From Eledone cirrhosa (Eukaryota), in assembly GCA_964016885.1 (NCBI GenBank), contig OZ024740.1:221836001-221900000 (forward strand): 64,000 nt of DNA. The letters are read 5' to 3'. Below are positions 12,111-62,972 of this stretch, piece after piece; position 1 is the stretch's first letter, and the number at the start of each line of letters is the position of its first letter. The notes under the pieces are model-generated. The model made no database searches and was not told where the DNA came from. It worked only from the letters and a program-made list of their open reading frames with translations. The position numbers and the translations under genes are program-made.

Positions 12111-15100
12111 GGGGTAATGTGGAGCATAATAAGTCAATGTGAAAGAAAAAAATGTTATTTACAGGCATAGTTCTTGAAGATAAGCAGATCAAAATGTGTT
12201 AATATAGCAAGGGTGCTTAGTTGATCCATGATGGAGGCAAATGGTGGACTGGGGTTTGATATGATTTCCCTTTTTAGTTAATATGCAGGGGGAGGTAATT
12301 CATGCTGGATGATATTTAATTTATTTAAGAAAAAGGATTAGAGAGACATAGGTATTTGTAAATGTTTGATTGTTCGTTCTAGTTTTAGTTTAGACCGAAG
12401 TTTAGTGCATTAAGTAGAGGTTGCAATTTGTTAATGAAATACGTTTCCTTATTGGTACGATGGATGAAATTAGCGTTGTCTATGAATTTGTAAATGGGGA
12501 AAATTTTAAAGTTTCGATGTTGGTTGGGTGCACAATTGGCGATATGTTCACTAAATGCAATCTTTCTGTATTCCTGTATTTTGATTTGTGATTTATGGAC
12601 GGTCATACGTTGTCGGAGGCTGTTTTTTATCTGTCCTATGTAGTGCTCTTGACAACCTGAGCAGGTCAAAACATAGATTGGGTTTTCAGATGCACATGTA
12701 AAGTTGTGTTTAACTGTGAGATGTTGTCCTTGTTTAAAATGGGATGTTGAATCTTCTATTAGATTTATGCATATGCCACAGTTGGGCCTTCCACATTTTG
12801 TTACTGTAGGGTTCATTGTGAGGGTTTGTTGGATTTTGGCTTGCGTGAGGATGTTTTTTTATGGATTTAGGTTGTCTTTTGCTCTTCATGATGTTGTGTG
12901 TATGGAGGATTTTGTTCATTCTTGGGTCTCATTTTAGTAAAGAAATGTTCTGGAGGATGGTGTCGAATGCCTCATTGTTGAGGGGGTTCTGTGTAGAGAT
13001 GTATGGTAGAGTTTTCTGTGGCGGTTCATTCCTCTGTTTGGGGTGTCTCAGCTCCTGGATGTCGAGTTTTAGGGCTCGTTGGAATCCATTGTTGATTAGG
13101 GATGGTGGGTAGTTTCTGCTGATAAGTGTGTTTTTTAATTCTTCTAGTCGTGTGTAGCATGTGTATTTATCTGAAACTATTGCGCAGATCCTTCTGGCTA
13201 GGTTATAAGGAATTACCCTTTTGGTGTGTCTAGGGTGGCACGAGTTGAATGTAAGATATTGTTTGGAGTCTGTGGGTTTGTAGTATATGTCTGTTTTATA
13301 TTTTGGTGTCTGTTTTCTTGATGACGATGTCGAGGAAAGGGAGTTGTTCATGGCTGTAATCCATTGTGAATTGTAAGTTTGTGTTGAGTCCATTCAGAAG
13401 GGTTTTAAACTCAATCAGTCTATCTATACTTTCATGCCAGAGGATGAAGCAGTCGCCCAGATATCTCTTCCAGTTCTTTCTATGTGTTGGTAGAAGTGGT
13501 TGCCGTATTTGTCTAGAACTTTGCGGTAGAGAGTGGTTTCCAAATATCACATGACAAGGTTGGCGTATGAGGGGGCTACTTTCGTGCCCATGGCAGTCCC
13601 AGATTTCTGTCTGTAGTATTTGGCATTGAATTCGAAGAAATTGTTTTCCTAGATGAATTTGAGTCCCTCCAACACAAATTCTTTAGGTATGCGCTGTGGG
13701 AGTTCACTAGGGAAATTTTCAACCCAGAATTGTATTGCCTCTATACCTAGGTTGTGTGGGATATTGGAATATAAATTGATGACATCAAAGGTTACTATTA
13801 GGGTATGTTCATTATTGAGTGTTGTTGGGAGGTGGTTGAGCATGTCAAGCTCGTCCCTTGTGAAGCTTTTTATGTGTTTTAGGAAAGGTTTAAGCAGAAT
13901 ATCTAGGAAGTTGCTTAGGCGGTTGGTTTCACATGTGGTACTTGCTATTATGGGTCTTAATTTAAGGTCATTAGGAGGGGCTATATTGATGTAAATGTCT
14001 GTGGCTTGCTTGCAGGCCCTACCTATTACTTCGCTTTTGTGTGTCTTTGGGATACCGTAGAAAAGGATGGTTCTGCTTTTGAAATTGGTGATGTAGTTGT
14101 ATTCCTGTCTGTAAGGCCTTCTTTGTAAAGGGTTGTTAGGGATTTTAGGTTTCTCATTATTTTCTGTTGTGTGTATTGTTGGGCCTTTTCATATGTTTGG
14201 TTTTCTAGAGTTGAGAGTACTAGAGTCGTGTAATAATCTGACTCCATAAGGACTACTGCACTCCCTTTATCTGCCTCTTTGGTCGTTAGGGTTTTGTCGT
14301 TTTTTAGACTGTTAAGACCATTCCATTCTTTTTTGCTTAGGTTTTGTTTTTGTTTATGTCTGTGTAGGTAGTGGTATGGGTAATTAGTAATGTGTTCGCA
14401 GAATTGATCGAGGAATTTGTTCTTGCCTTTTGTTGGGGTGTAGTTGTTTCTATTTCTGGCTAATGAGTCATCCTCATTGTATTTGTCGTATAGTTGCTCG
14501 CTGAGTCTTAGTTTTCTACAGAATTCTGCAATATCTTCCTTCATTTTGGGGTAGTTTGGTTGTTGGGGTGTTGGTGTAAATTTTAGACCTTTGGAGAGTA
14601 TGTTGATTTGGTCTGTTGTTAATTCTTTACAGGTTAAATTAACACTTTTTATTACATTTTGTCTCCTGTGTGTATTGTGTTATCTTGTTATCCTGTGTCT
14701 GTGTGCTGTGTCTAAAAAATGATTACGGAAGTTGTGGTGGCTGTTGAAGTTTGGATGTCTCTTATGGTTGTATTGAGCCCTGTTGTTGTTAGATGGTGTG
14801 TAGCTGTGGTGGTTGTTGAAGTTAGGTTGTATCGTGTGGTTGTATTGAGCCCTGCTGATGTTGTAGGGTGTGTAGATATGATGGACGTGGTTATAGGGTG
14901 TGAAGTTGTGGTGGCTGTTGAAGTTGGGTTGTATCGTATGGTTGTACTGAGTACTGCAGTTGTTGTAGGGTGTGTAGACTTGGTGGTAGTTGTAGTAGTG
15001 TTGTCTTGTGTGGTTATATTGAGTCCTGCTGTTATATGGTGTGTAGCTATGGTGGCTGTAGTGGTTAGGGTGTCTCGTGTGGTTGTATTGTCCCCTGCTT

Positions 15101-15710: not shown

Positions 15711-16417
15711 GGTAGAATACTAGAGTAGCGAAAAACCAGAGGACAGCCTAAGGCCAGATGTAATTATCTGATCCGATATCTCCGCCACACATCGTCAAAT
15801 ATGGCTAGAGATAGGAAGCGCTGGATATCAACTAGGGAGGGGTTCCTGCAATAGATTTGATAAAGCCCTGGATTTTGGATTTTAGATTTTGGATGTAACT
15901 TTACCCATAGTTCATAAGATAATTTGAAATTTAAGGTGAACCTTAGCTGGTGTATTTAGTAAAGACATACTTTTGATTCACCGTAAAAAGTAAACAAAGT
16001 GATTACACGTATGTTCTCACCATGCCTTGGAAAAAAAATCGATTTCGTTAGTTTCAAGCTATATTATGGTCCAAGTAGGAATCGTTTAGTTCTGTCAACA
16101 GACAGAATCATAGCTTATAGCAGTAAAGTATTCAGAAACTCAGTCAGAACAAAATTAGTCAGTGCAATTCACATAAGAGTGCACATGTTGGTAACGACAA
16201 TTAAGTAAATAATAGAAACACTCACAACGTTTTGTTTTGGTTAATGGTTGTGAGTAGTGACTCCTAAAAGTAAACTCCACCAAAGGTTTTTTTTCTTTCG
16301 GTACCTGGAAAAGATACCAATTCTTCCCCAAATTTTCATTACACACTCTGTCACACATGTACACACGCCCACTCATATACACGTGTGGTGTACGCTAATA
16401 TATATATATATGTATAT

Positions 16418-16637
16418 ATATTTATTAAAATAACAGATTAAAGTTTAAGCAAAGAATCGCTGCTTTCACCCTTAACGGGATCTTCAGAAGATCCCGTTAA
16501 GGGTGAAAGCAGCGATTCTTTGCTTAAACTTTAATCTGTTATTTTAATAAATATTTGCTTTACGGTTCTTATATATTTGATATATATTTATCCTTATCGA
16601 GCCCTCTTTGGATTTTAGTCTTCAATTTTATTATTAT

Positions 16638-16640
<3 letters not shown>
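16418..16640. mobile_element. Family D: perfect ~137-bp palindrome centred on a hammerhead core, plus a unique 3' tail, in (TA)n
   Basis: Centre ...GGGATCTTC-A-GAAGATCCC... at 16486. The minus strand reads CTGAAGA-TCCCGTTAAGGGT-GAAA-GC. Homologues are at 19338-19542 and 45936-45987. Confidence 0.8.
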
Positions 16641-16694
<54 letters not shown>

Positions 16695-16734
16695 AGTATA
16701 TATATATATATATAAATATATATATATATATGTC

Positions 16735-17830
16735 ATTCTGGTTACAATCAGAGGGAGAAAATCAGAGTATATAGAGGAGCCAGAAGCAAATGGGAAAACA
16801 TGGTAAATAATGACACAAATGGGACCTGTCCCTTGAATAGGAGCAAATTTTGGAATAGAATAGAAAGAACTAGGAATAAGGTTAATAGAATAAACTCATG
16901 GTATGATAGCAATAAATATCAGAGTGTAATGTTCATCGATACAACCCCTAGAGGTGGATTAGCTTACAAATTTAGAAGGGCCCTAGATAAACATAAACTC
17001 AATATTAAGATAGTAGAAATACCAGGTTCCTCCATAAAAACACTTATTAGCAATACATACCTTTTTCAAAGACCTCCCTGTATAGATAAGAAATGTATAA
17101 TCTGTAAACTAAGCCCCCATATTAACTGTAAAACTAGAAATGTAGTATATAGCATAAGATGTACGGAAGGACAATGTAGAGATAAGAATATAGTGTACAT
17201 AGGTGAGACAGAACGTAGTATAGGGGAACGGATAAATGAACACTGGCGAGAGCTTCAAGATAGTAAAGAATCATCTGTACTCCACCAACATGCTAAAATA
17301 GAACATAAGGATAAATTAGAGAACAGAAATAAAAAATAGAATCTATACACAGAAAAGACGCAATGTTTAGACAAATCACAGAGGCAATAAACATAAATGA
17401 ACTCCAACCAAAATTAAATAGAAAACATGAATGGAACAGCAATATCACAACTTACAATTAAGGAAAAATGAAAACATACACACACACACACAGAACAAAC
17501 AACCAACCAGTAACATAGTAACATGTAAATAAACAAATAAATAAACAAATATAAACACACACAGACACCCGGATGTACACATGTGCAAACTAAGCACACA
17601 ACACACATACAAACAAGAGGGCGTAGGACAGAACAAAGGAGAGGCACAAAAACAAAGAAAATAATCCCCAGTCACTGAAGAAGTCATAGAATGTGTGACG
17701 AAAGAACTTTGACAATATATGAACAATCGTCTGGTTGTGGAATCAACCAGCCAACCGGAAATTTACAAATTCCTAAATTTATAATAAATTGAAGTGAAAG
17801 CAACTGGTGCGTGTGTTCCTTACAAATATA
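16735..17830 (+). mobile_element. 5'-truncated Penelope-like element (GIY-YIG end plus 3' repeat)
   Basis: ORF 16800..17339: C..C.IC...CKTRNVVYSIRC...YIGETERSIGERINEH. An HHR follows downstream. Confidence 0.9.
17671..17713 (+). ncRNA. Minimal type-I hammerhead ribozyme
   Basis: GTCA-CTGAAGA-A-GTCATA GAATG TGTGAC-GAAA-GAAC-TT-TGAC: 4-bp stem I, 6-bp stem II, short stem III. Confidence 0.8.
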
Positions 17831-17834
17831 ATAA

Positions 17835-19030
17835 ATGAATGTAATAGATAAAATCCATGGGGCTGCAAATCAAAGACTGGAGGACGACCGCTATCCACCA
17901 TCTTCCACCTTTGCCGGTCGCCCTCAAGTGAGGTGGCTAAAGCTTATAGTGTGCTACTACCGGTCACATAGAGGAAAACAGAAAGGGCGAGGAAGATAAG
18001 TCAGCGTTAATATCATGCCACAAGAAAAAAGAAGGGGGAAGGAAGAAATGGAAGAAGAAGAAAAGTCAGGGTTAGTGTCCAGCTACAAGAAGAAAGACAG
18101 AAAGAAAGAGGAAGAAAGGTCGGTACTAATGTCAAACTACAGTCAGGCCAGGAATGTCGCGAAAAAGATTTATTCTAAGGGAGCCGTATCTTAACAACTA
18201 CTAGCGGTCAAATATAGGCAAACAAAAAGGCGGAGGAAGATAAGTCAGCGTTAATATCATGCCACAAAAAGAAAGACAGAAAGAAGGGGGAAGAGAAGGA
18301 AGAAAATGAAGAAGAAGAAAAGTCAGGGTTAATGTCGAGCTACAAGAAGACAGAAAGAAAGAGGAAGAAATGTCGGTACTAATGTCAGACTACAGTCAGG
18401 CCAGGAATAGCGCCAAAGATTTTTTTCGAAGGACCCGTATCTTAGCAGAGGTAAATATATTGGGGGTCTGTATGTTATAATGTGTGAGCAGAAGATTGGA
18501 ACGTTACATTTTTGTTTAGATTTGTAGGATGAAGTTAAAAAAATTATATTTAATATTAACATTATAAAATTAAAGAAATTAGAAAATTGAAAGTTAAACA
18601 GTTTAACATTTTTAAGGTTGCGAGGTTTAAGCAAAGAAAGAGTCTTTTATGAAAAAAACTTAAATTTTATTATAGAGTAAAGATTATGTCTTTGTTTAGC
18701 CGTCAAACAACATGCGGCGACTACAGGCATGCGCAGCCCATCCACTCCGAGTGATATCGCCTAGCGAAAGATATGGAAATCAATTTTTCCGAGCACTCTA
18801 GGAATGTATAACAGGCATCAGGTGCGCCAGCGGGAAGTCAGCCCTCATCGTTAGGCCATCCTTGTACAAAACCAGTACTATTCATTTACCCAGGAGGGGG
18901 ATTTGCTTAAGTAGAGGGAGGCGTGATACATCTAATAGTTATGATTAGATCTGTAATTTAAAGGTACTATATGGCGGTCAAAAATCCGGCTGCGCGCCGG
19001 GCCCCTTGGGCGAGTCAAGCCACTCCGAGT
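17835..19030 (-). mobile_element. Diverged partial copy of Family E (see 46979-49549) with an internal ~240-bp tandem duplication
   Basis: Collinear similarity to 47110-47970 (GTCGCCCTCAA.TG, TAATGTGTGA..GAAGA..GGAACGTT, TTTTTCCGAG.ACTCTAGGAA, CTCCGAGTA). GAGGAAGATAAGTCAGCGTTAATATCATGCC occurs at ~17989 and ~18233. Confidence 0.75.
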
Positions 19031-19059
19031 ATATATATATATATATATATTTTATATAT

Positions 19060-19262: not shown

Positions 19263-19337
<75 letters not shown>

Positions 19338-19344
<7 letters not shown>

Positions 19345-19539
19345 TAACAGATTAAAGTTTAAGCAAAGAATCGCTGCTTTCACTCTTAACGGGATCTTCT
19401 AAGGGTGAAAGCAGCGATTCTTTGCTTAAACTTTAATCTGTTATTTTAATAAATATTTGCTCTACGGTTCTTATATATTTGATATATATTTATCCTTATC
19501 TAGCCCTCTTTGGATTTTAGTCTTCAAATTTATTATTAT

Positions 19540-19542
<3 letters not shown>
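19338..19542. mobile_element. Family D copy 2 (asymmetric fold-back)
   Basis: Near-identical to 16424-16640. The left arm ends at GGGATCTTC and the right arm starts at TAAGGGTGAAAGC. Confidence 0.85.
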
Positions 19543-19583
<41 letters not shown>

Positions 19584-25349: not shown

Positions 25350-25711
<362 letters not shown>

Positions 25712-25777
25712 ATATATATATATATGTATACATACATATGTATATATATATATATATATGCACACACACGCACACAC

Positions 25778-31375: not shown

Positions 31376-34300
31376 ATGCCTCGACGAGGAAGAAAGAAAA
31401 CATCTGGTTGGTCTATCGATAGTGGAAAGAAAGCACGGCTAAGGAGTGCCGAAGAAGGTGAGCAAGATAGTGGTCAACGCCAACAAGATCGGGACAGGCA
31501 TGCGAACAGAAGGATCGATGCGACTGATAAAGCAAGGGCTGCGCGTCCGGCGGAACAGAGGGAAAGAGACAGAAGCAGGAGATATCATGAATCGGATGGT
31601 CGGAGAGCTGCGCGACTGGCGGAACAGAGATAAAGGGGCAGAAGAAGGAGAGATCATGAATCGGATGGTCGGAGAGCTGCGCGACTGGCGGAACAGAGGG
31701 AAAGGGGCAGAAGAAGGAGAGATCATGAATCGGACGCTCGGAGAGCTGAGCGTCAGGCGGAACAGAAGGAAAGAGACAGAAGAAGGAGAGATCATGAATC
31801 GGATGGTCGGAGAGCTGAGCGTCTGGCGGAACAGAGGGAAAGAGACAGAAGCAGGAGAGATCATGAATCGGATGGTCGGAGAGCTGAGCGTCTGGCGGAA
31901 CAGAGGGAAAGAGACAGAAGCAGGAGAGATCATGAATCGTATGGTCGGAGAGCTGAGCATCTGGCGGAACAGAGGGAAAGAAACAGAAGAAGGAGACATC
32001 ATGAATCGGTCGCTCGGAGAACTGACCGTCTTTGCCAACAAACCATTAGGGATAGAGCAAGGACAGTTCAACGACGTGACCTCTCTGCTGGTGTTGGACA
32101 GATGAATAAGATCTGTGTCTCTTGTCATGCAATGCTTTTTCATGGTGAAACTGCTAACTTTTGCTGTATGAATGGAAAAGTCAGGCTGGGGAATCTGCAG
32201 CCTTTACCCCAGGAACTTCAGAGTTTATTTAGTACTGATCAACCTAGGGCAAACGAGTTCAGGAAGAACCTCAGACAATACAACTGCCTGTTCCAAATGG
32301 CATCTTTTGGGGCCGGAGAATTTCGTTCCTCAAGGAGTGGATGGAATCCTTCTATCGTTATTAATGGTCAAATTCACCATTACATCGGTTCCTTAACCCC
32401 TAATCCCAACGAACAACCCAATTTCTTCAAATTTACTTCTTGGATCCTCAGGATAGTGTTGATTTGAGGATCAGGATACTCCATAACGATGGCATTCAGC
32501 TTGACATAGTTGAATTATTGGAAATAATACTCAGACAATATAACCCTTACGTTGCTTCATTTCGAATGGCAAAAGAACAAATTAAAAATATTCTCGAAGC
32601 TTTGATTATTATTGATCCTGATAGGAGACCAGCAATGGAACATGAGAGAAGATTCAATGCACAAACTGCAAACGAAGTTGCCGTTATTATACAAAACAGC
32701 ACCGAACTTCAAGCAAAAGCACGGCACATTGTGTTGAAAGAAAAAGGCGGATAATTGCAGATAATCTCAGAGTCCCATCGGTCCTATGACAGTTTGCAGT
32801 ATGTTCTATTTTTTCCTTTTGGCGATGACGGATGGCATCATGAGCTGTTAATGAGCAACAACAATAAGTTGACGCCAATGCGCTACTATGCCTATCGAAT
32901 AATGAACCATGAGAATGAATTCAACCAACTTCTCAGAGGCGGTCGTTTATTTCAGCAATATTTGGTTGACATGGCTGCGAATATTGAAGGAGATAATCTG
33001 CAATGCATCCGAATGAATCAAACATCATTGCGATCTACAACATACAAGGGCCTTACTGACGCATTGAATGATGATGACGATTTTCGCAATATTGGCAGGC
33101 GAATCATACTCTCTTCCACATTTGTCGGTGGACCGAGATATATGATGGAGCGATGCCAGGATGCCATGATGTACATACGGAAGTACGGCAATCCTTCGTT
33201 CTTCATCACAATGACATGCAATCCAAACTGGCCTGAAATCCGGCAAAACCTATTCCTGAATCAAAAGCCACATGACAGGCCAGATTTAATTGCCAGAGTA
33301 TTTGACCTGAAGCGGAAACTGTTAAGAAAGTATCTTACTGGAGTAGATGGCCTATTTGGCAAGTGCATTGCTTACGTGCTGACAGTCGAATATCAAAAGT
33401 GAGGTCTTCCTCATGTGCACTGTTTGCTATGGCTCAATGAAGCCTCCAAGCCCAGACCGCAGGAATATGATAAATTTGTTCAAGTCGAAATACCAGATCC
33501 AAACAAAGATCCAGAGGGTCATGAATTGGTGCTGAAGCACATGATCCACAGTCCGAATTGCTCTAACAATTCACCGTGTTGGAAAGATGGAACGTGCAGT
33601 AAGCGGTACCGTAAGCCTTTCAATGAATATACATTGTGTGGAAAGGACTCTTATCCTGTGTACAGAAGACGGTCTCCAGGAATGGGAGGATTTGAGGGGC
33701 ACCAAGAAGGAAGGGGAAGCCGAAATATAACTTCGGAATGGGTGGTTCCCTACAATATGAAACTATTAAAACTGTTCAACTGCCACCTAAACGTAAAGAT
33801 GTGCTCTTCCGTGAAATCGATCAAATATGTTATCAAATATACCATGAAGGGCAGTGATCAGGCAATGTTTGGAGTGAACAGGGAAGATGAGATAATACAG
33901 TATTTAACAGGAAGATATATCGGTCTTTCAGAAGCTGTTGCTTTGGTACTTGTATTTCCAATTCATGAGAGAGAACCGGCCGTAGTTCGCCTTCAAGTTC
34001 ATCTACCCGAGGAAAATCAAATCTTCTTTCGGGTCAATGCTGCTGTTAAAGTAAACAATAACATGGCTAAGACGACTCTGACTGAGATCATGGGTCTTTG
34101 CGATCGCGATCCGTTTCCAAAAACATTGTATTATGCCGATGTCCCAAAGTTTTACACTTGGAGTAATAAGAGATGGGAAAGGAGAAAGGTGGGGAAAACA
34201 GTTGAGCAGTAACCGGGGATTTTTGAGGCGACCGTTTTGGGAGGAGTATACACTGTTTCTCCACGAAGTGGTGACCTGTATTATTTGAGACTCCTTCTGC

Positions 34301-36122
34301 ATCACGTCAAAGGGCCAGTATCCTTCAACTCTTTGAAAATGTGTGATGGAGAACTCCTGCCATTATTCAAAGAGAAAGGTTTGCTTCAATCGGATGATCA
34401 TTAGCAGCAGACTCTGGAAGATGTTGAGCGAACAAGGCTTCCCAAAGCCATGAGAGATCTATTCATCGTAATCCTCACAAATACGGAAATTGACAATTCC
34501 AGTGCTTTATGGATTCGATTGAAGCATTCGCTGTCTGTGGATTACCTTCAAATAGAAAAAAGGGCTACCAGAAACTCTAACCTTTTGATTAGCGAGAGAC
34601 ATTATGATCAATGTCTTCTGTATTTTGAAGACAAACTTAACGACCTGGGCAAAAGTCTTAGTGACTTTAACTTGCCAAGGCCAAATAATATTATAGCTAA
34701 TCAGGATATTGGCAATTTGGAGTTATTGCATGAATTGCAATACACCAGAGAAGAGTAGCGACGATTTGTAGAAGAGACGGCGCCTCTATTGAATAGTGAA
34801 CAAAAACACGTGTACGACTTCGTTTGTAACTGTTTAGAGACGAACACATCTGCATTGATTTTCATTGACGCTCCAGGTGGAACAGGAAAGACATTCCTGA
34901 TTAACTTAATTCTTTCAAAAGTCAGGGGAAACGGCGACGTGGCAATTGCTGTTGCGTCATCTGGCATTGCCGCGGCACTTATGCCTGGTGGAAGAACAGC
35001 GCATTCTAGGTTCAAAATACCGATAGTAGTGAAAGAAAATGGTCTGTGTAACATTGATAAAATCTCAAAGACGGCAAACCTCTTCTAGCATACAAGGCTG
35101 ATTGTTTGGGATGAGTGTCCTATGATTCGGAGGGAAAGCTTCGAAGCTGTTGACCTCACTCTGCGTGACATAATGAGGCATTCGGTAGAATTTTGACAAT
35201 TTGCTGTGGCGATTTCCGTCAGCTTCTTCCGGTAGTGAAAAGGGGAAATGAAGCGGACGTGGAAAACGCCTGCATTAAAAAATCCTACTTATGGCGAAGC
35301 TTCAAAAGATTTCAGTTGTAGAAAAACATGCGATTGGGTGGGGGAGCAGGAGACTATTCACACTTCCTATTGGAAAAGATAGATAAAAAAACTGAAAATG
35401 AGGAAATTATTTTGCCAAAAGAAATGGTTCTCCAAGCAACAACTATGGAAGAATGTATTGATTTCATCTACCCCTCATTCGACAATCCAGCTGAAGTGTT
35501 TTCGAACAATTGCATCTTAGTACCTCTCAATCAAATGATGAGAAGCATCAATTCCACCTGTATCAGACGCTTCCCTGGAACCATAAAAGAGTAACGATCC
35601 TATAATTCTCTGAGTGATGGTGCCAATGCCACTCATTTCCCGACTGAATTCCTTGATTCGGTTGAACTATCAGGACTGCCTCCATATAACCTGGAATTGA
35701 AAAAAGGATCGCCAATAATTCTTATGAGAAACTTGAATCCTCCAAGGATTTGTAATGGAACGCGCATGATCGTGAAAGAACTGCACGACAATCTCATAGT
35801 AGCAAGAATCAACACTGCTGCTTTCAGAAATGAGATCGGTATGATACCTAGAATAAGAATTAATCTATCCGAAGGTGAGGATATCCCTTTGCAGCGAAGC
35901 CAATTCCCAGTTCAATGGTACTTTGCTATGACTATTCATAAAGCACAAGGACAAACTATGGAAAACGTCTTGGTTTATCTGGAACGACCTGTATTCCAAC
36001 ACGGTCAACTGTATGTAGCCCTTAGCCGCGGAAAACGAAAAGAAAATGTCAGAGTGTTTCTGAAGGATACCCAGTCAACTAAGAAGGTTGTCATCAAAAG
36101 CATTCTTTTGAACAAACTGTAA
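31376..36122 (+). pseudogene. Helitron RepHel transposase (Zn-finger, HUH Rep, Pif1 helicase), interrupted by stops and frameshifts
   Basis: C..C.A..F.GE...CC.NG, FFITMTCNPNWPEI, VEYQK*GLPHVHCLLW (HUH), KYVIKY..KG (Y2), DAPGGTGKT (Walker A), FAMTIHKAQGQT, HGQLYVALSR. Confidence 0.95.
31540..32035 (+). repeat. 60-bp tandem repeat (~8 copies) in the RepHel N-terminus
   Basis: Recurrent GGAACAGAGGGAAAGAGACAGAAG.AGGAGAGATCATGAATCGGATGGTCGGAGAGCTG, encoding an Arg/Glu-rich 20-mer. Confidence 0.9.
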
Positions 36123-40179: not shown

Positions 40180-42010
40180 CAATTATATAATAGATAGACG
40201 TAACGGCGGGCCTTGATTATTGGGATGGCGTAGAAAATCTTAAACTCTGCTCTTCATGCAACACTGGACGGATAGCTTCAGATACAGACAACTTCCCAAC
40301 AAATATAAAAACAACGAGAAACAGCAGACTGTCAACATCCTACCACTTCATTAAAACCCACGAAACCAGTGTTAATCTACAGATTAGACCATTTGTCTCT
40401 AGTATAGAAAGACCCCTCTATAAAACCTATGCTTGCTACTTTTCCTGGACAATTCAGCAGCTGTAACGAAGTCATACACAGACTAGATCAACTTCAACCT
40501 CACAAATTTAAACTCAACAGATATGCCTTTAGCCTCGATGTTGTCTCCCTCTATACGACAATACCCGCTCACCCAGCAGTCAACCTAGTGACTGAATGAA
40601 TGATTTCATACAACAGATACTGCTTCGGCCTCACTGCACAAGACATACATCAGCTTCTATCCGTCATCGTAGAAAATGCATATTTCACTTTCTACCACAG
40701 CACATACAAACGAACAGCAGGGGCTACCCATGGAATCCAGTCTTTCAGGCCTTCTGGCCATCACCTATATGAACCAACTGACACATCAAGGGTTTAACAC
40801 CTGCCGCTCCTGTGTTTTCTTCACCCGATACTTACATGATATACTCATCTTCACATAATCCCGTGAAGAGGCTGACATATTATCTACGACATTCTCAAAC
40901 ATAGATAACAACAGAATATTTACCATAGAGAACCCCGAGAAAAATGGTTCCTGGTCCTTGCTAGACTTTTAGCCTATAATAACATAAGATGGTTCTATAT
41001 ACACCAACTTCTATAGGAACGCCGCCAGCAGAGACCTGTTTGTGAATTATAGATCAGCCCTTCCCATTGGTGCTAAAATCGGATTCATAAGAAATGAATT
41101 TACGCATATCCAGAATAAATGCAAGACAGGACAAGATCACTCAAACTGCACAATACATGGATGTACAGAAGACGAACGGATACCCAACATCCACAATGAA
41201 TCATCTTAGGAATCGAAGGCGCCGCAGGCATAAGACCTCATCTAACACCTGCTTCATGAAAGTACCATAATTCAGTTATCAGCAGAGCCATCCGCAAAGA
41301 AGGATTGGACATACAATTAGCACACTCCGACCCTTTGCTGCGTGGATACCTACCTAAAAAGCAATCCAGAGACAAAAACAACCAATGCTCACTGACTAAC
41401 TGCCCTATCCGCGACACATGTATGTGCCAGCAGACACATGTAGTATACCAGATTGAATGCAGCAAAGGTAAGGAGTTCCACATTGGCAAGACAACTCGAA
41501 CACTCCATACCCATATTAAATAACAATTCAACATACATCCTCATTCAAAAAACACATTGACAAATGCAGAAACATCAACAACGATATACAAGTCAATGTT
41601 GAAGCCAGAGAGAGAAATATGGGCAATTTAAGAATTAAGGGAGCCTTGCTGATATGTAGATGCAATCTACAAACCAATAATAGATTAGAACACAGCACAC
41701 AATACTACACACACACACGCAATCTAAACAACATTTCACAAAACAAAAAAAAAAATTGATTCAATGAAATATTACATCGGCAATTGACGTCATCCTCCGG
41801 CTTCGTAACGCTTGAAAGCTGTTTATAGAATTTAAATCTCAATCTAATTCCAATGAGAAGAAACCGGGAAATTTTTCTCTGAGTGTTCCTTATATTCTGA
41901 AGAAAGGAATTTTATGTCCCGAAATATTAGGACGAAATCCCCCCCCCCCCACAAAAAAGAAAGAAACAAACAAACAAAATAAAGATTACCAGGTAACTAA
42001 GTTTTTTGTT
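40180..42010 (+). mobile_element. Decayed Penelope-like element (RT plus GIY-YIG) with a degenerate HHR at ~41893-41935
   Basis: YHFIKTH...IRPFVS, SLDVVSLY, QQGLPMESSLSGLLA..YM, FTRYLHD, HVVYQIEC....HIGKTTRTL. CTGAAGA...CCCGAAATATTA lies downstream. Confidence 0.88.
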
Positions 42011-42149: not shown

Positions 42150-43140
42150 GACTCGTTAGTGCCAGAGCATCATCACGATATAGGCCCGTTAGGGAATTTC
42201 TCGACAGGGCAGCACCCTACTACAACTCAGACCTAAGCAACAACAGCTTCTCCGAAAGAATCACGTACTCTCCTGATCACCACCCTACATTAATGTGAAG
42301 ACCAAAGTAGGTAGAAAATTTCTAGGCCTCCTAGATCTTTAATTCTCTGTAGGCCATAAATACCGACACATATTTAATAGTCATACAATGAAAATAAGCT
42401 GCTTTTGTACCAGTAAGATAAAATCTCACATCACTGTCAAATGCAAAACCCTTCCACCTTATGGATGCTCATGCAGAAAGCCAGAAACACGCCCATTAGA
42501 TCAACAGTGCAACACTTCAGAGGTGATATATGAAGCAGTAGTAACCTCCAACAACCAGAATCTCCAAACTGAAGCCTGGAATCATGTCGGAATGTCAAAG
42601 AAATAATGGTTTAAAAGCTGGTACCTAAACCCCGAAACAACCTTCAGACGTCTTGACAAAAACCATGCCACTCAGCTCGCAAACATGGAACATTAAATAT
42701 AATGACACAGCACTTTCTATTAAATGGAGTAAATTATAAAATTCCACCCCCAATCTTAATAGAACATTTTGAGAGCTGTGTAACTCGGAAAAGAGGAATA
42801 TACACTCACAACTGACTTCAGAGAAACACTGCTGTAGTCGCTGTCCACATGGGGCAAAATTCATTCCGAGAAAATGGTACAGACATGTTTAACTGAATTT
42901 AAATTCTTCGAATTCCTAACTTTGCACAGCACAAGAAGCCCCCCCTCTCCATTTGTATTTTAAAAATAGTTATATCTCTTCAAATATTTGTCTCTCTGAC
43001 GCTAAATTCAAGATTACTTGCCCTAGAAAAGCCCACCGGTATTTTAAAAAAAACTTATAAATAATCTGTGGAGGCTGAATGAGTTGTAGAGTATAACCCA
43101 ACGAAACTTAAGTATCTGTGTATGTCACTGTTAAAACTAA
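42150..43140 (+). mobile_element. Penelope-like element 3' fragment (GIY-YIG) plus 3' repeat
   Basis: NVKTKVGRKFL.LLD..F..GHKY.HIFN.HT.KIS; CSCRKPE..PLD.QC....VIYEA.V; HVGMS. Confidence 0.8.
43071..43117 (+). ncRNA. Type-I hammerhead with a one-nt core insertion
   Basis: AGG-CTGAATGA-GTTG...CAAC-GAAA-CTTAAG-TA-TCT, with palindromic stem III ACUUAAGU. Confidence 0.6.
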
Positions 43141-43399
43141 TTGTATATGTACACAGACACACACACACATATATATACATATACACACACACATATATAT
43201 CTCCCTAGTATTAGCTGTTTACGTCACCAGGGATGTAAGATTGAAACTCCCTATCTCCATTTAACTTTAGTTAAACAAGCTGGATATCAACATTTACAGT
43301 TAAATACATTTAATTCTCTCTTCTATGGAGAGGAAGCGTATATAATTAAGAAGGAATTTAAAATTTACAGTTGTTAACACATTTCTTACTAATCTGAAC

Positions 43400-46849: not shown

Positions 46850-46919
<70 letters not shown>

Positions 46920-46926
46920 ATATATA

Positions 46927-46978
<52 letters not shown>

Positions 46979-47036
46979 TATAAATAAAATAAAATGACAG
47001 GAGGCTGGACTGGTGTAAATCCTTGAAAGGTTTATT

Positions 47037-47094
47037 ATACTATGATCATTTCAATGACCGGGTTCCATATGAATCCGGTGATATCATCAGGTAT
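47037..47094 (-). ncRNA. Type-I hammerhead ribozyme (Family E)
   Basis: Minus strand ATAC-CTGATGA-TATCACCGGATTCATATGGAACCCGGTCATT-GAAA-TGATCA-TA-GTAT. Confidence 0.85.
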
Positions 47095-49000
47095 TGGAAT
47101 ATAATAAAGGAATATGTAAAAAACCATGGGTCCGAAAAATCAGAGACAGAGACAAAGAGGACGACTGACCAACTAGCTGCCTTTATCTCGGCCAGTCGCC
47201 CTCAAAGTGGTGGCAACTGAATCAACTAATGAATATCTGGTGAGTGGGCGAAGGCTTATAATGCACTACCACCTCTCCGTTAAAGAAAAAGGGGAAGAAA
47301 GAAAGAAAGGGAGAAATAAGTCAGCGTAAGGGTCACACTACATTCATGATAGAAAATGCCGCGAAAAAATGCTACTCCAAAGAATCTATAATAGGTGTCT
47401 GTATGTCTAATGTGTGAACCGAAGACAGGAACGTTAAACTTATGTTGCGAGTTATAGGATGAAATTAAATTAAATTAAAAATATTAAATTGCAAAATGAT
47501 AAATTGAAAAATAAGTTATTAGAAAATTAAAGGTTAAGGTAGCGAGATTTATTTAATGAACTTACGGAGAGAGTCTTATATGAAAAAATTTATCTCGATA
47601 AGAAATTAGGATGGGATATAGAGTAAAGATTTCGATTGGGAATCCCAGCCAGCGCCCCCAACCATGAGTCAGCCAGCTTCGAGTGGTATCGTCCATCGAA
47701 AGAAATGGAAATTAATTTTTCCGAGTACTCTAGGAACGTAGCCACCTTAGGCGCCGGGAGCGCCAGCGGGAACTCCACAATTTCGACAGGCCATCGTCTA
47801 TACCAAACGAATATTATTAAATCACACATGAGGGGGTTTATTTACGTGCCAGTAGAGGCATGATACAGCTAATAGTTATGCCTAAACCTGGAGTTTATAG
47901 GTATAAGTATAATATGGCGGCCAAAACACGCGGCGCTGTGCGACCGGGCAAAGCAATCCGCTCCGAGTAATTTCGTTTAGCGAAAGAGGAGAAATTTATT
48001 TTTCCGAGCACTCAAGGAAGGCTGAACTTTCCGAGTGCCCAGCGCGCAGCCGAGAAAAGCCACCAGACAAGTCGAAAGTAGCAACCCAATGAAAAGTGCA
48101 AATAGACCAAAATTATTTTAAAGTCCCAGTTAGTCCGGGTTATAAGTAGTGTGGTTGTTAGGTGGATTGGGTGCTATGAAAGGTGCATAATGACCTGAGT
48201 AAGGAAAGTTACAAAAAAATAATAAAAGCAGGATACAAAGATACATTACAAATATAAAGATAGAATACATTTATAAAAATACATTAATAAAATAATAAAA
48301 AAATAAAAAAATATACATTAATGAAATAATAACAAAATTAATAAAGGTAAATAACTAGGGATGTAGAAAGACGGAAGTATATAAGAACGTATCGGAGGGA
48401 TCACAGTGTAGGGGAAATACAATATAGATCAAGTTGTAGTAAGATCATACAGGTTGTACATATAGATATAGAGGATGAAGGAGATGGAATGGTAACAGGT
48501 TGTACCTAGTGTAAAGTTCGGGTCACCGAATTCAGTGTGAGTCACAAAAAGTCCTGAGGTATAGAGTAGAGAATTCAGTCAATACAATACATGTTTTAGT
48601 ATAATACGTAGAGTTTTGTCGGAATCGGAATCATCCCGACAAGGAAGTAGTATCAGGTGGCGGTAGATAAAGCACAGAGCAGCCAAAATCCGAATGGTAA
48701 GTAGATCAGTTAATCCCATGCTGACAATAGCTGTACACTGAAGTCAATGCCGCTGTTCAATATTACATTTTGAAGTGCTCAACATTATTAGAGCATTATT
48801 TCTTTAGGTTTGTTGGTTCACCACTGGATAGAACTGGTCATTCTGTATGGTCAATCCTGGTGTAATATTGTGAAGAGTACTCAACGCAGTGCAGTTGATC
48901 CATCTTCGTTTGTGTAGTAGGTGGTGCGAATACGGAGTTAATTATAAATAAAATAAAATGACAGGAGGCTGGACTGGTGTAAATCCTTGAAAGGTTTATT

Positions 49001-49058
49001 ATACTATGATCATTTCAATGACCGGGTTCCATATGAATCCGGTGATATCATCAGGTAT
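49001..49058 (-). ncRNA. Type-I hammerhead ribozyme (Family E)
   Basis: Identical to 47037-47094. Confidence 0.85.
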
Positions 49059-49784
49059 TGGAATATAACAAAGGAATATGTAAAAAACCATGGGTCCGAA
49101 AAATCAGAGACAGAGACAAAGAGGACGACAGACCAACTAGCTGCCTTTATCTCGGCCAGTCGCCCTCAAAGTGGTGGCAACTGAATCTACTAATGAACAT
49201 CTGGTGAGGGGGCGAAGGCTTATAATGCACTACCACCTCTCCGTTAAAGAAAAAGGGGAAGAAGGAAAGAAAGGGAGAAAGAAGTCAGCGTAAGGGTCAC
49301 ACTACATTCATGCTAGAAAAAGCCGCGAAAAAATGCTACTCCAAAGAATCTATAATTGGTCTCTGTATGGTCTAATGTGTGAACCGAAGATTGGAACGTT
49401 AAACTTATGTTGCGAGTTATAGGATGGAATTAAATTAAATTAAAAATATTAAATTGAAAAATGATAAATTGAAAAATAAGTTATTAGAAAATTAAAGGTT
49501 AAGGTAGCGAGATTTATTTAATGAACTTACGGAGAGAGTCTTATATGAAGAAAAAAAAAAAGAAAAAAAAAAAATATACATATATATATATATATAAATC
49601 AATAATAATGAGTTCAAATCTCAGGCGATCATTTACAATGAAATAGCTCGAAGAAAGAGTATTTCTGAGCGGTGTAATATAGGTTTATATAAATCAATAT
49701 ATTTGATAAACACAAATACCCTCATATTTATGTTTGTATTGTAAATGACCAAGTTAGCTAGATAGAAATATACTAATAATAATT

Positions 49785-50720
<936 letters not shown>

Positions 50721-51849: not shown

Positions 51850-53950
51850 AGGCGTAGTTATAATGTTGTGCAAATGAATATCACAAACGTTCCATCAAAC
51901 AGAATCTGTCCATTTTCAATTTATGTTATAGTTCTAATAACTGAACATGTGAGCACTTCATATCAACGAAAATTCGGCGTTGGTTTTAGTTTACTTGTAT
52001 GGGTAAATATAAAACTAGAGCTAGATAAATAAGCGCTGTGATCAATACAAGCAGGATATTACATCTGTATGCTATATATTTCAAAAAGTACATCCGAGCA
52101 TTTCAATCAAATAGTTACAGCCATGTATGTTTATGATTTGTGTTAGCAGAAATACATCTATTTCACACACTGTATTGATTACTAACTCATAAATCTTTGT
52201 AGATTATTGACCATCTTTTTAATTCAGATCGAAGATATAATAAACGTATGCTCGGCAGAACGGCTCATTAGAATTATCTTGTATAGTATAAGATTATTTA
52301 TTGCAAAGAACTATCATAAATGTATTTGAAGGAGAAACGATATAACTACTGCGCGGACATTCAACTTGGTTTCCTTGTATAGCTGGTGCCTGTATATTCC
52401 TAAAATATATTAACACATAATATATTAACATATAACAGTCATCTTATCTCCAGGAAAATAGTAATGGCTGCCAACCACAAGTACAGTGTGTATCAGAAGG
52501 ATATGACTCCATCGGAAAACTGATTTATAGACTTGAGATTGCTCGGCAAATATATAGATATACTACAATATTATGGTGACCACACGCACACGCCTGAGCT
52601 ATGTGATAGCTCGATCTGCTAAACATAGCAGTCAGATTTCCTTCAAATCATAATGAATATCAAAAATTACAAAATAGAATGAGAAAAGTTTATACATTAA
52701 TCGTCCTAGTAGACATTATATCTTATACAAAGAACAGCTTCATCATGGCATGAATACCTGCTCAATCAAGGCAGACATAAAATGCAAGTCTATGACAATA
52801 AATAAATTAATAGCAAGCTATCTCGCATATATTCGAACGTATAACACCAATCATTCGCTCACATTCAAATATAAATATGGTACTTATGGCTGTGTTTCTC
52901 ATTACTGGTGTAATTTCAAAACAATAAACATTTTTGGGTGTCACAGCATAAAGTATGTGTCTGCACGCAACTATACATAGCAGTATAACAGATTAGCTTT
53001 AAAGTTCGCTTCGTAATCATAAAATCCCGTTTTTTTTTCTCACGGCATGACATCTTAGACATGTCATTTACAGTAGTCTCGGGTCGATCGAAGCCTTGTG
53101 AGCAAAATTGGGTTGATGAAAACTGTTGTGAAGCTCATCGGAAGGATTGTACTTATATTTCAGAAAATCAGCTTTGTCACACATCGCATCACATTGAATC
53201 CTCCTCAGAAATACGTTAATATACGTGTCCCTGAAATGCTCAGCCACTTGCATATTACTGAAACTCTCATCTCAACCGACAAGAAAATTAATGGTACCTG
53301 TATTTCAAAAGTTCAGTCTTTGCATACACCATTCCATGCTTAATCTTGATGTGAATTACGCTAAATGCACACATGCCAGTAAAATTCTGGGTCACAAGCA
53401 CATTAATATCAGAAGCAGCCTGTTCCGTTGATCAAGCAGTTGGAGCATTCATCGTTGTAACCGATGCAGTTCCATTCCATTCAATTCTATATTATTCCAT
53501 TTCATTCGAGTCTCTGATTAATAGCAAGCTTCAACGAATTTTAGATACGTAGATGTTTTACTCAATGCATATAAACACCTAGAACAGGTGTTTATATCAC
53601 ACAAGATATAGCTTCCGCCATCGCTATCTCCAGTGTACTATTGTTGAATATGGCGTAATATTGTTAGAAAAATTAGCACATAAATATATGACATATTTAA
53701 ATGTTTTACAGCTTTCACTAAATAAAGTAGATTCATACTTTCCAATAACTATTGTTCGAGCGATATATTATTCTTGGAAAGTAATATGCATTGCATATTT
53801 TTCTATAAATGTGGGAACTTGTAATAAGGAAACATTGAATGGATTTCAAGGAGATGAAATAGATTTCTCAAGTAGGACGGTTCTGGAGAGTTGGTGCTGT
53901 TATATATAGGAAACAGCAATTGTAAACGTTATATTAACTATTGTAGACTG
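51850..53950 (-). pseudogene. Possible decayed class C GPCR remnant, copy 4
   Basis: Minus-strand peptides VSY.TAPTLQNR (~53890, VFT), SPSNTFMIVL, FCRAY, TKIY, EIDVFLL, LKCS..AY..LLVLI, in collinear order. Confidence 0.35.
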
Positions 53951-55499: not shown

Positions 55500-55699
55500 A
55501 TTATATAGAGTCAAAAACAAAAAACACACTTTTTTTCATTCTCGTTCTTTTCTTTCTATGTTTCTTCCTAACTATTATGCAATTATACACCTGATGATGT
55601 CACCGGGTTCATACGTAACCTGGCCACTGAAATGTGCATAGTATTTGCAGTAATAAAATCTAAAGGAATACAACCTGTCCTGCCTCCGGTCATTTTACC

Positions 55700-55705
<6 letters not shown>
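55500..55705 (+). mobile_element. Solo Family-E-related repeat end with a hammerhead at ~55586-55644
   Basis: CTGATGA-TGTCACCGGGTTCATACGTAACCTGGCCACT-GAAA-TGTGCA-TA-GTA...TAATAAA...GCCTCC.GTCATTTTA then (TA)n, homologous to the reverse complement of 46981-47094. Confidence 0.75.
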
Positions 55706-59524: not shown

Positions 59525-62940
<3,416 letters not shown>

Positions 62941-62972
62941 CCCATCCTTATACACGCACACACACACACACA

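Follow-up and report, generated by a model that had tools for sequence, protein, structure and literature searches.

Penelope-like elements (PLEs) characteristically insert as partial tandems with pseudo-long terminal repeats (pseudo-LTRs), 5′ truncation and an optional 3′ extension (PMC8557442), and those of the Hydra clade are shorter than about 3 kb, with 26 of 27 families inserting in (TA)n (PMC8557442 supplement). In the anole PLE PAc, reverse transcription starts at two adjacent sites 111–118 nucleotides (nt) into the open reading frame (ORF), in an AC-rich loop, and the element works with a dead hammerhead ribozyme and yields no RNA reads that end at the cut (PMC11167929); the repeat and tail of a rotifer PLE likewise cover the ORF start (PMC3846280). 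Dimer-type PLE hammerheads cleave weakly in vitro (PMC4209133), and one of nine frog retrozyme dimers cleaved (bioRxiv 10.64898/2026.07.22.740005). Plant LTR retrozymes use a Ty3-gypsy helper and form circles of 0.6–1 kb (PMC4918200). Here we describe a hammerhead-bearing insertion in a 64,000-nt stretch of Eledone cirrhosa DNA (the window; assembly GCA_964016885.1, contig OZ024740.1, positions 221,836,001 to 221,900,000, forward strand), which belongs to a multi-copy family and is a large variant of known non-autonomous PLEs. On balance we lean towards regarding it as a protein-free PLE derived from the Hydra clade and copied by a helper from uncut read-through RNA, with an internal start 3′ of the hammerhead.

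Anatomy of the insertion and its family

The insertion is 2.6 kb long and comprises 1.31 copies of a 1,964-nt unit in partial tandem (Table 1). Its direct repeats, annotated initially as near-identical and about 605 bp long, are 606 and 607 nt in length with a start-to-start spacing of 1,964 nt, and differ by one indel and 15 substitutions, of which 5 are transitions and 10 transversions, making 16 differences in all (97.4% identity; Jukes-Cantor (JC) distance 0.025). They are one full unit plus a 5′-truncated unit, and are thus pseudo-LTRs of the PLE type and not LTRs; the insert starts 545 nt before the first predicted hammerhead cut and extends 62 nt beyond the second. The surrounding DNA is microsatellite-rich animal sequence, and of the TA flanks described at first the left one is a long (TA)n tract, whereas the right side opens with a 25-nt A-rich run before a short TA tract. 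On the two assumptions that the repeats were at first identical and that an octopus rate applies (JC 0.09 corresponding to 25 million years; PMC13282606), their 2.5% divergence would date the insertion to about 3.5 million years ago, and the spread called recent in the initial annotation is so only in relative terms.

We saw no TG..CA ends, primer-binding site (PBS), polypurine tract (PPT) or target-site duplication (TSD) at the element on inspection by eye, and no tRNA was found within it; the earlier statement that TG..CA, PBS, gag and reverse transcriptase (RT) are missing is borne out; the element has neither LTR hallmarks nor an RT or endonuclease (EN). Two long ribozyme-bearing direct repeats around a non-coding middle are what one would expect of a non-autonomous LTR element such as a plant retrozyme, TRIM or LARD, and the locus had been likened to plant LTR retrozymes. 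That likeness does not survive the assignment of the repeats to a full and a truncated unit, and since the element has no TG..CA, PBS, PPT or TSD, a hammerhead of type I rather than type III, and relatives that are 5′-truncated at varying points and end in (TA)n, we consider an LTR origin scarcely credible.

Four of seven listed public runs, representing at most three samples and two studies, were compared to one unit (46980–48942) at a likeness of 80%; none of the seven is on record as RNA. Each of the four runs covers all 30 bins of the unit, and the junction between units (48942 to 46984–90) is present in two of them, at depths of 336 and 303 (X1) and 244 and 277 (X2). For the eight listed X1 contigs the depth is 4.9–12.5, and the mean in the six 5′-most interior bins in X1 is 2,779, about 300 times their median. 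Coverage decreases towards the 5′ end of the unit: in X1 the summed depth, which is not a copy number, reaches about 500,000 at the hammerhead and 3′ end, is 14-fold lower just upstream, and is about 80,000 at 48762–48893, with a jump across 48762 of 23-fold (X1) and 38-fold (X2). Across the cut the depth drops only to 0.88 (X1) and 0.77 (X2), and two dips stem from the repeat filter.

Because the junction and interior occur at high depth in other samples, a private deletion or an assembly artefact is unlikely, and the element is a multi-copy family. One might otherwise suppose that an ordinary PLE copy has decayed here or undergone a private deletion, or that the structure is a local duplication or an artefact of assembly, and it is consistent with this that organism A, the source of some of the reads, lacks the window letter at many sites, and that an interior frame of 247 codons contains only 6 stops. 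However, in other samples the depth of the interior and junction is hundreds of times that of a single contig, the repeats differ at 16 sites, and the 6-stop frame is equalled by 175 of 2,000 shuffles; its sole match (phmmer against 1.84 billion representatives) is an 11-fold repeat protein aligned over 31 residues at 27.7 bits each, which we rejected as a repeat artefact. This explanation is largely refuted, and we regard it as very improbable.

Both repeats share letters absent from the family majority (47281, 47067), and at four listed sites the downstream repeat alone departs from that majority; together these fit one template followed by drift. In most organism A reads and contigs, four letters stand in place of the 65 bases at 48355–48419 (at a depth of about 400 in X1 and X2, and in X4 and X5 as well), so that the unit may ordinarily fall about 60 nt short of 1,964. 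One X4 contig enters (TA)n behind 48910, and short hammerhead-less copies of the 48803–48910 stretch may be common.

The window holds two relatives of the element. The diverged copy covers 385 of the 1,358 interior bases and most of one repeat, with 168/229, 149/186 and 271/363 alignment columns identical (73–80%). Only 12 of its 40 alignment gaps are multiples of three, which indicates that the shared part was already non-coding; the same non-coding interior had been ascribed to this copy, whereas it aligns only to 47098–47969, has no hammerhead and carries a 245-nt duplication. This divergence and the coverage in all four runs support the earlier notion of a PLE derivative without RT, one that is multi-copy and has existed for some time. 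The solo copy keeps the core and self-complementary helix III that had been noted, but its BLAST match to the element spans 115 nt (55589–55703) and not 205, and its 4-bp proximal helix I is either mismatched at one position or shifted by 2 nt. In its helix II one pair has changed from A-U to G-C; overall, relative to the main copy, one pair is gained and three are lost, one of these in helix I.

Within the element the longest stop-free stretch is 83 codons, and no Pfam family was found at E≤1 in any of its 12 read-through frames, whereas four of five control PLE proteins matched. A profile of 46 Neptune-like proteins found no domain at E<1 in the element, although the window's other PLEs were mapped by it, and the best tblastn match of 92 Neptune-like proteins to the element (E 0.078) was equalled by 30 of 40 shuffles. 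We also rejected a peptide of thumb-like appearance within the repeat (YKP..Q..SCH; E 0.078–0.1, 30 of 40 shuffles as good). There are no detectable coding remnants past the first 15 codons, and the interior is non-coding as first described, the search for PLE ORFs having found nothing above shuffles. The PLE-like peptide trace reported near the 5′ repeat (LHNITPGLTIQ) lies in a probable vestige of a Hydra-clade ORF start, with its ATG 101–102 nt past the predicted cut; none of 20,000 local and none of 3,000 whole-unit shuffles produced the motif with its frameshift.

Hammerhead motifs and the ends of copies

The two main motifs share a core, CUGAUGAU...UGAAA, and both have predicted cuts at AUA|GUAU, with 1,964 nt between. 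A 25-letter core pattern matches three times in the window, in each case with no mismatches, and none of 100 shuffles gave any match. Helix I is an open arm, made of 4 bp and a 6-bp arm with a bulge; helix II has a U.U at positions 10.1/11.1 at its base, followed by segments of 2, 5 and 3 bp, each separated from the next by a mismatch, and a 5-nt loop; and helix III is an 8-nt palindrome (AUGAUCAU) with a duplex energy of −7.2 kcal/mol. In a nearest-neighbour model the monomer hammerhead fold (−3.1 kcal/mol) lies about 14 kcal/mol above the best fold (−17.0 kcal/mol). The Rfam hammerhead models gave no match at the gathering threshold or at E≤10, the only Rfam matches in the window being TA-repeat noise and one tRNA-like match at 2117. 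As modelled, the motif suits the dimer type and not a stand-alone canonical hammerhead, and it would probably cut only as a dimer or with protein help. The pair of canonical hammerheads proposed initially therefore stands as to the identical minus-strand cores 1,964 nt apart, but not as to their type, given the dimer form, the U.U and the absence of an Rfam match.

A strict hammerhead scan missed the solo copy and a relaxed scan missed both main copies, and neither is a census. The exact core had no matches in a metagenome scan, and a homolog search with a short fragment of the window gave none. A looser core pattern found 23 metagenome and 4 viral loci, which were rejected; none is BLAST-similar to the element or to PLE proteins, and their helix I has 0–1 pairs in 25 loci, two in one, and five in one other that has a G at the cut.

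Copies of the family end in two classes joined to (TA)n. The first, near 46987–9 (mixed flanks; 14 and 21 contigs, 246 reads), is 53–62 nt past the cut, and the solo and main copies share a 3′ end there, 62 nt past the cut, in (TA)n. The second passes into (TA)n at 48803 in all four runs (43, 42 and 7 contigs; 297 reads), 202 nt past the cut, and at 48797 in two runs (32 contigs; 253 reads), 208 nt past it, an extension of 140–146 nt; these ends are 101 and 107 nt after the vestigial ATG, directly after an AC-rich run. None of the 24 loose ends listed, out of 889, is at the cut. Because the insert runs from 545 nt before one cut to 62 nt past the next, it is not a copy of a linear cut-to-cut RNA, and its template was either uncut or circular. 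A linear 1,964-nt RNA with AUA|GUAU ends, envisaged earlier as an intermediate, thus finds no counterpart in the listed 3′ ends, which lie 53–62 or 202/208 nt past the cut and never at it. It is likely that the predicted hammerhead trims or releases transcripts rather than setting the ends of the copied RNA.

Ancestry and mode of copying

Hydra-clade ancestry seems likely from the core, the TA targeting and the frameshifted ORF-start vestige. The U.U core CUGANGAU...UGAA is present in 14 of 25 listed Hydra-clade hammerheads, as compared with none of six Chlamys/PLE-X families (counted by eye), Hydra-clade consensus sequences end about 35–115 nt past the cut (read by eye), and three complete Hydra ORFs start with M-[DE]-x3-8-Y-S-x-K-N-I (PMC8557442 supplement). 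Two decayed Hydra-like RT/EN fragments are present in the window (E 1e-17 and 4e-13). The frameshifted ORF start is all that remains in the element of the Hydra protein motifs (RWK, DKT, CxCx5C), and there is no RT for placement in a tree.

The element could alternatively be a non-autonomous derivative of a Neptune, Penelope/Poseidon or Nematis PLE, with Hydra-like features arising by chance or convergence; Neptune-like elements do occur in the window, Neptune elements also favour microsatellites (PMC8557442), and the Hydra attribution depends on short motifs. However, the window's Neptune-like hammerhead (17675) is of the minimal G-C type, five Neptune-like proteins begin differently, and neither the 46-protein profile nor tblastn found a Neptune-like signal in the element at E<1 or above shuffles, respectively. 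We therefore regard an origin in another clade as improbable.

From the anatomy, the family and the (TA)n ends that we observe, we infer how a Hydra-derived element of this kind might be copied. A helper RT–GIY-YIG protein would bind the retained ORF-start region of the element RNA, nick a (TA)n target, and copy uncut read-through RNA from an internal start 3′ of the hammerhead; copying would stop after about 100 nt in most copies and continue for more than one unit in the main copy, with the stopping point setting the length of the pseudo-LTR. An uncut read-through RNA, to which we give slightly better than even chances, is more likely the template than a circle, which appears doubtful. In the latter case, that of a giant retrozyme, the hammerheads would pair via helix III and release a 1,964-nt monomer, a host ligase would close it, and a helper RT would copy the circle through 1.31 turns from an internal start. 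Inserts longer than a unit, and ends at a distance from the cut, are accounted for just as well in this way; circles were proposed for PLEs by Cervera 2014 (PMC4209133) and shown for animal retrozymes of 170–400 nt (PMC7229834), the palindrome offers a duplex of −7.2 kcal/mol, and the solo copy conserves the core with its one A-U to G-C change in helix II. The predicted circular fold (−412.9) is also lower than that of all eight block shuffles (−378.8 to −401.7), although only 51% of bases are paired in it. The minority letters common to both repeats are what one template would give, but they follow equally from a single master locus. Also against a circle are the poor cutting of dimer-type PLE hammerheads in vitro (PMC4209133), the single frog dimer in nine that cut (bioRxiv 10.64898/2026.07.22.740005), and the anole PLE's independence of cleavage (PMC11167929). 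The fuller proposition, a 2-kb Hydra-clade PLE parasite living as a hammerhead-released 1,964-nt circle with rolling reverse transcription from a roughly 100-nt relic of its helper's ORF, is less probable again. Were it true, the unit would be twice the largest reported animal retrozyme, pseudo-LTR formation would be linked to RNA circles, and the element would provide a minimal cis-element map for a (TA)n-directed PLE gene-insertion system.

Several points weigh against a Hydra-derived element copied from uncut RNA. The data do not separate an uncut template from a circle, and since the listing covers 24 of 889 loose ends (with 15 of 28 joints and 40 of 314 variant sites), ends at the cut may be hidden from it. 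Depth sums give no copy number, and organism A, which contains only 29–32% of the window's words (the share found in three of the seven runs), may be another individual or species. The ORF-start motif was defined after seeing the sequence, requires a frameshift, and has one other match in the window, at 51895 on the minus strand with an in-frame stop, so that its background is near one per 128 kb; a Hydra-like protein, used as a query lacking its N-terminal third, reached at best E 2.8 against the unit beyond this motif, with 95 of 100 shuffles as good. Covariation between the main and solo hammerheads, which amount to two distinct sequences, does not reach significance (128 of 500 shuffles as good). 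The hammerhead table available for comparison is without Neptune, Poseidon and Nematis motifs, and does not establish the U.U core as Hydra-specific; the window's Hydra-like fragments have a different hammerhead motif or none, no autonomous helper sharing the hammerhead or 3′ end was found in the window, and five 11–13-letter strings from the element had no matches in the available Craig 2021 supplement.

Other features of the window

The 51895 match to the ORF-start motif lies about 200 nt from a TA tract and is either chance or another remnant. At 42253–43150 on the plus strand is the decayed 3′ part of a Hydra-like PLE (E 1e-17 to P0098). Behind it come a hammerhead-like core near 43074–43110, read by eye and with a palindromic helix III, and then a microsatellite. 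A second Hydra-like fragment, at 49949–50710 (+), lies 400 nt to the right of the element behind a TA tract and has a CxCx5C linker and a GIY-YIG-like region; no hammerhead was seen downstream of it. Neptune-like PLE ORFs are present at 12406–14640 (−), 61019–62947 (−) and 40474–41553 (+), the first covering nearly the whole Neptune-like profile and being 76% identical to the second; the named relatives of a neighbouring RT are mostly molluscan. A PLE 3′ fragment at 16716–17825 (+), with a GIY-YIG region and a minimal hammerhead at 17675, adjoins the diverged relative tail to tail and is flanked by palindromic repeats at 16398–16676 and 19312–19578 that are 93.5% identical.

The GC-richer block of the element and its counterpart at 18735–19031 carry repeated TCG-N5-CGA and GGAAA..TTTCC arms, and contain 7 of the 11 TCCGAGYR motifs in the window; this repeated block is possibly a promoter-like element. 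All six folds of the internal repeated motif gave non-significant z-scores (−0.98 to +0.44), and for this reason we claim no RNA structure for it. Elsewhere, a run of ORFs at 31400–36122 (+) with a 69-nt tandem repeat resembles a Helitron Rep/helicase, and the tRNA-like match at 2117–2187 (−; 41.3 bits), with related copies near 2350–2436 and 25610–25734, is likely the head of a tRNA-derived short interspersed nuclear element.

Table 1. Coordinates of the element, its parts and its relatives in the window
Feature	Position	Strand	Remarks
Whole insertion	46979..49549	-	1.31 copies of the 1,964-nt non-coding unit
Upstream pseudo-LTR	48943..49549	-	5′-truncated upstream unit; 607 nt
Downstream pseudo-LTR	46979..47584	-	3′ part of full unit; 606 nt; T/A-rich end joined to (TA)n, 62 nt past predicted cut
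Interior of unit	47585..48942	-	Single-copy; without ORF with PLE homology
Type I hammerhead motif	48995..49072	-	Dimer type; core CUGAUGA starts at 49054; predicted cut 49005/49004
Type I hammerhead motif	47031..47108	-	Core identical; core starts at 47090; predicted cut 47041/47040
Probable vestige of Hydra-clade ORF start	48858..48903	-	ATG 48903; M-D-x6-Y-S, frameshift, H-N-I-T-P; post hoc motif
AC-rich stretch	48797..48820	-	Other family copies end here (48803, 48797) into (TA)n; putative internal start of reverse transcription
(TA)n target tract	46853..46978	.	At 3′ end
A-rich run and short TA tract	49550..49596	.	5′ junction; no TSD discernible
GC-richer segment	47670..48040	.	Internal 61-nt repeat; four TCCGAGYR motifs; also in diverged copy
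Diverged relative	17825..19031	-	5′-truncated; matches 47098-47969; without hammerhead; 245-nt internal duplication; (TA)n at its 5′ end
Solo copy	55570..55703	+	Short, 5′-truncated; hammerhead (core 55591, predicted cut 55640/55641); 3′ end joined to (TA)n

Comparison with known systems

The element shares with the Hydra clade of C-terminal EN+ PLEs (Craig et al. 2021, PMC8557442) its (TA)n targets, a unit of less than 3 kb, a type I hammerhead shortly before the 3′ end with a near-palindromic helix III, the U.U below helix II (14 of 25 listed families) and the ORF-start motif; it differs in having no RT or GIY-YIG, a longer, interrupted helix II, and no DNA match between the five short strings and the published consensus set in the part available. 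Chlamys PLEs such as Chlamydomonas MRC1 likewise include protein-free units with pseudo-LTRs that were formerly mistaken for LTR elements, as here, but these belong to green algae and an N-terminal-EN clade, generally without canonical hammerheads, and the 3′ extension of described PLEs is 30–40 nt rather than 140–146 nt (PMC8557442). The locus has the partial tandem pseudo-LTRs, variable 5′ truncation, sense-strand type I motif near the 3′ end and optional 3′ extension of non-autonomous PLEs, and is without the RT plus GIY-YIG ORF of autonomous ones.

Plant LTR retrozymes also have two hammerhead-bearing direct repeats around a non-coding middle, but with a type III motif, true LTRs, a PBS, a PPT and a 4-bp TSD, DNA hallmarks that are absent here (PMC4918200). 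PAc, a Poseidon element of Anolis carolinensis, shares adjacent 3′ ends just over 100 nt into the ORF in an AC-rich setting, AT-rich targets and a hammerhead upstream of the start site, and differs in being autonomous, in belonging to another clade and in its cut lying inside the ORF, whereas the element's cut is 101 nt before the vestigial ATG (PMC11167929). The metazoan non-LTR retrozymes (PMC7229834; bioRxiv 10.64898/2026.07.22.740005) have a non-coding unit with one type I hammerhead and, like the element, are PLE-derived and by inference PLE-mobilised. Their units are 51–972 nt in tandem arrays, as against 1,964 nt in a partial tandem with truncated ends; two tandem type I motifs are present in the insertion, in keeping with the two or more of non-LTR retrozymes, the second unit being partial, and its unit exceeds their range of about 50–1,000 nt.

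We found no report of a 2-kb, ORF-less, Hydra-linked hammerhead PLE or of this family in the literature searched, which lay outside Repbase/Dfam and most subscription journals. The element bears on the way in which PLEs form partial tandems and on the role of their hammerheads, and its significance is at the level of annotation. A protein-free family of this type would retain only those sequences that its helper needs in cis, namely the hammerhead, the AT-rich 3′ end and some 100 nt left from the start of the former ORF. In a second clade, and in genomic copies, its two end classes agree with the internal initiation that was demonstrated in vitro with one lizard element, and the size of its unit fills the gap between the small animal retrozymes and full PLEs.

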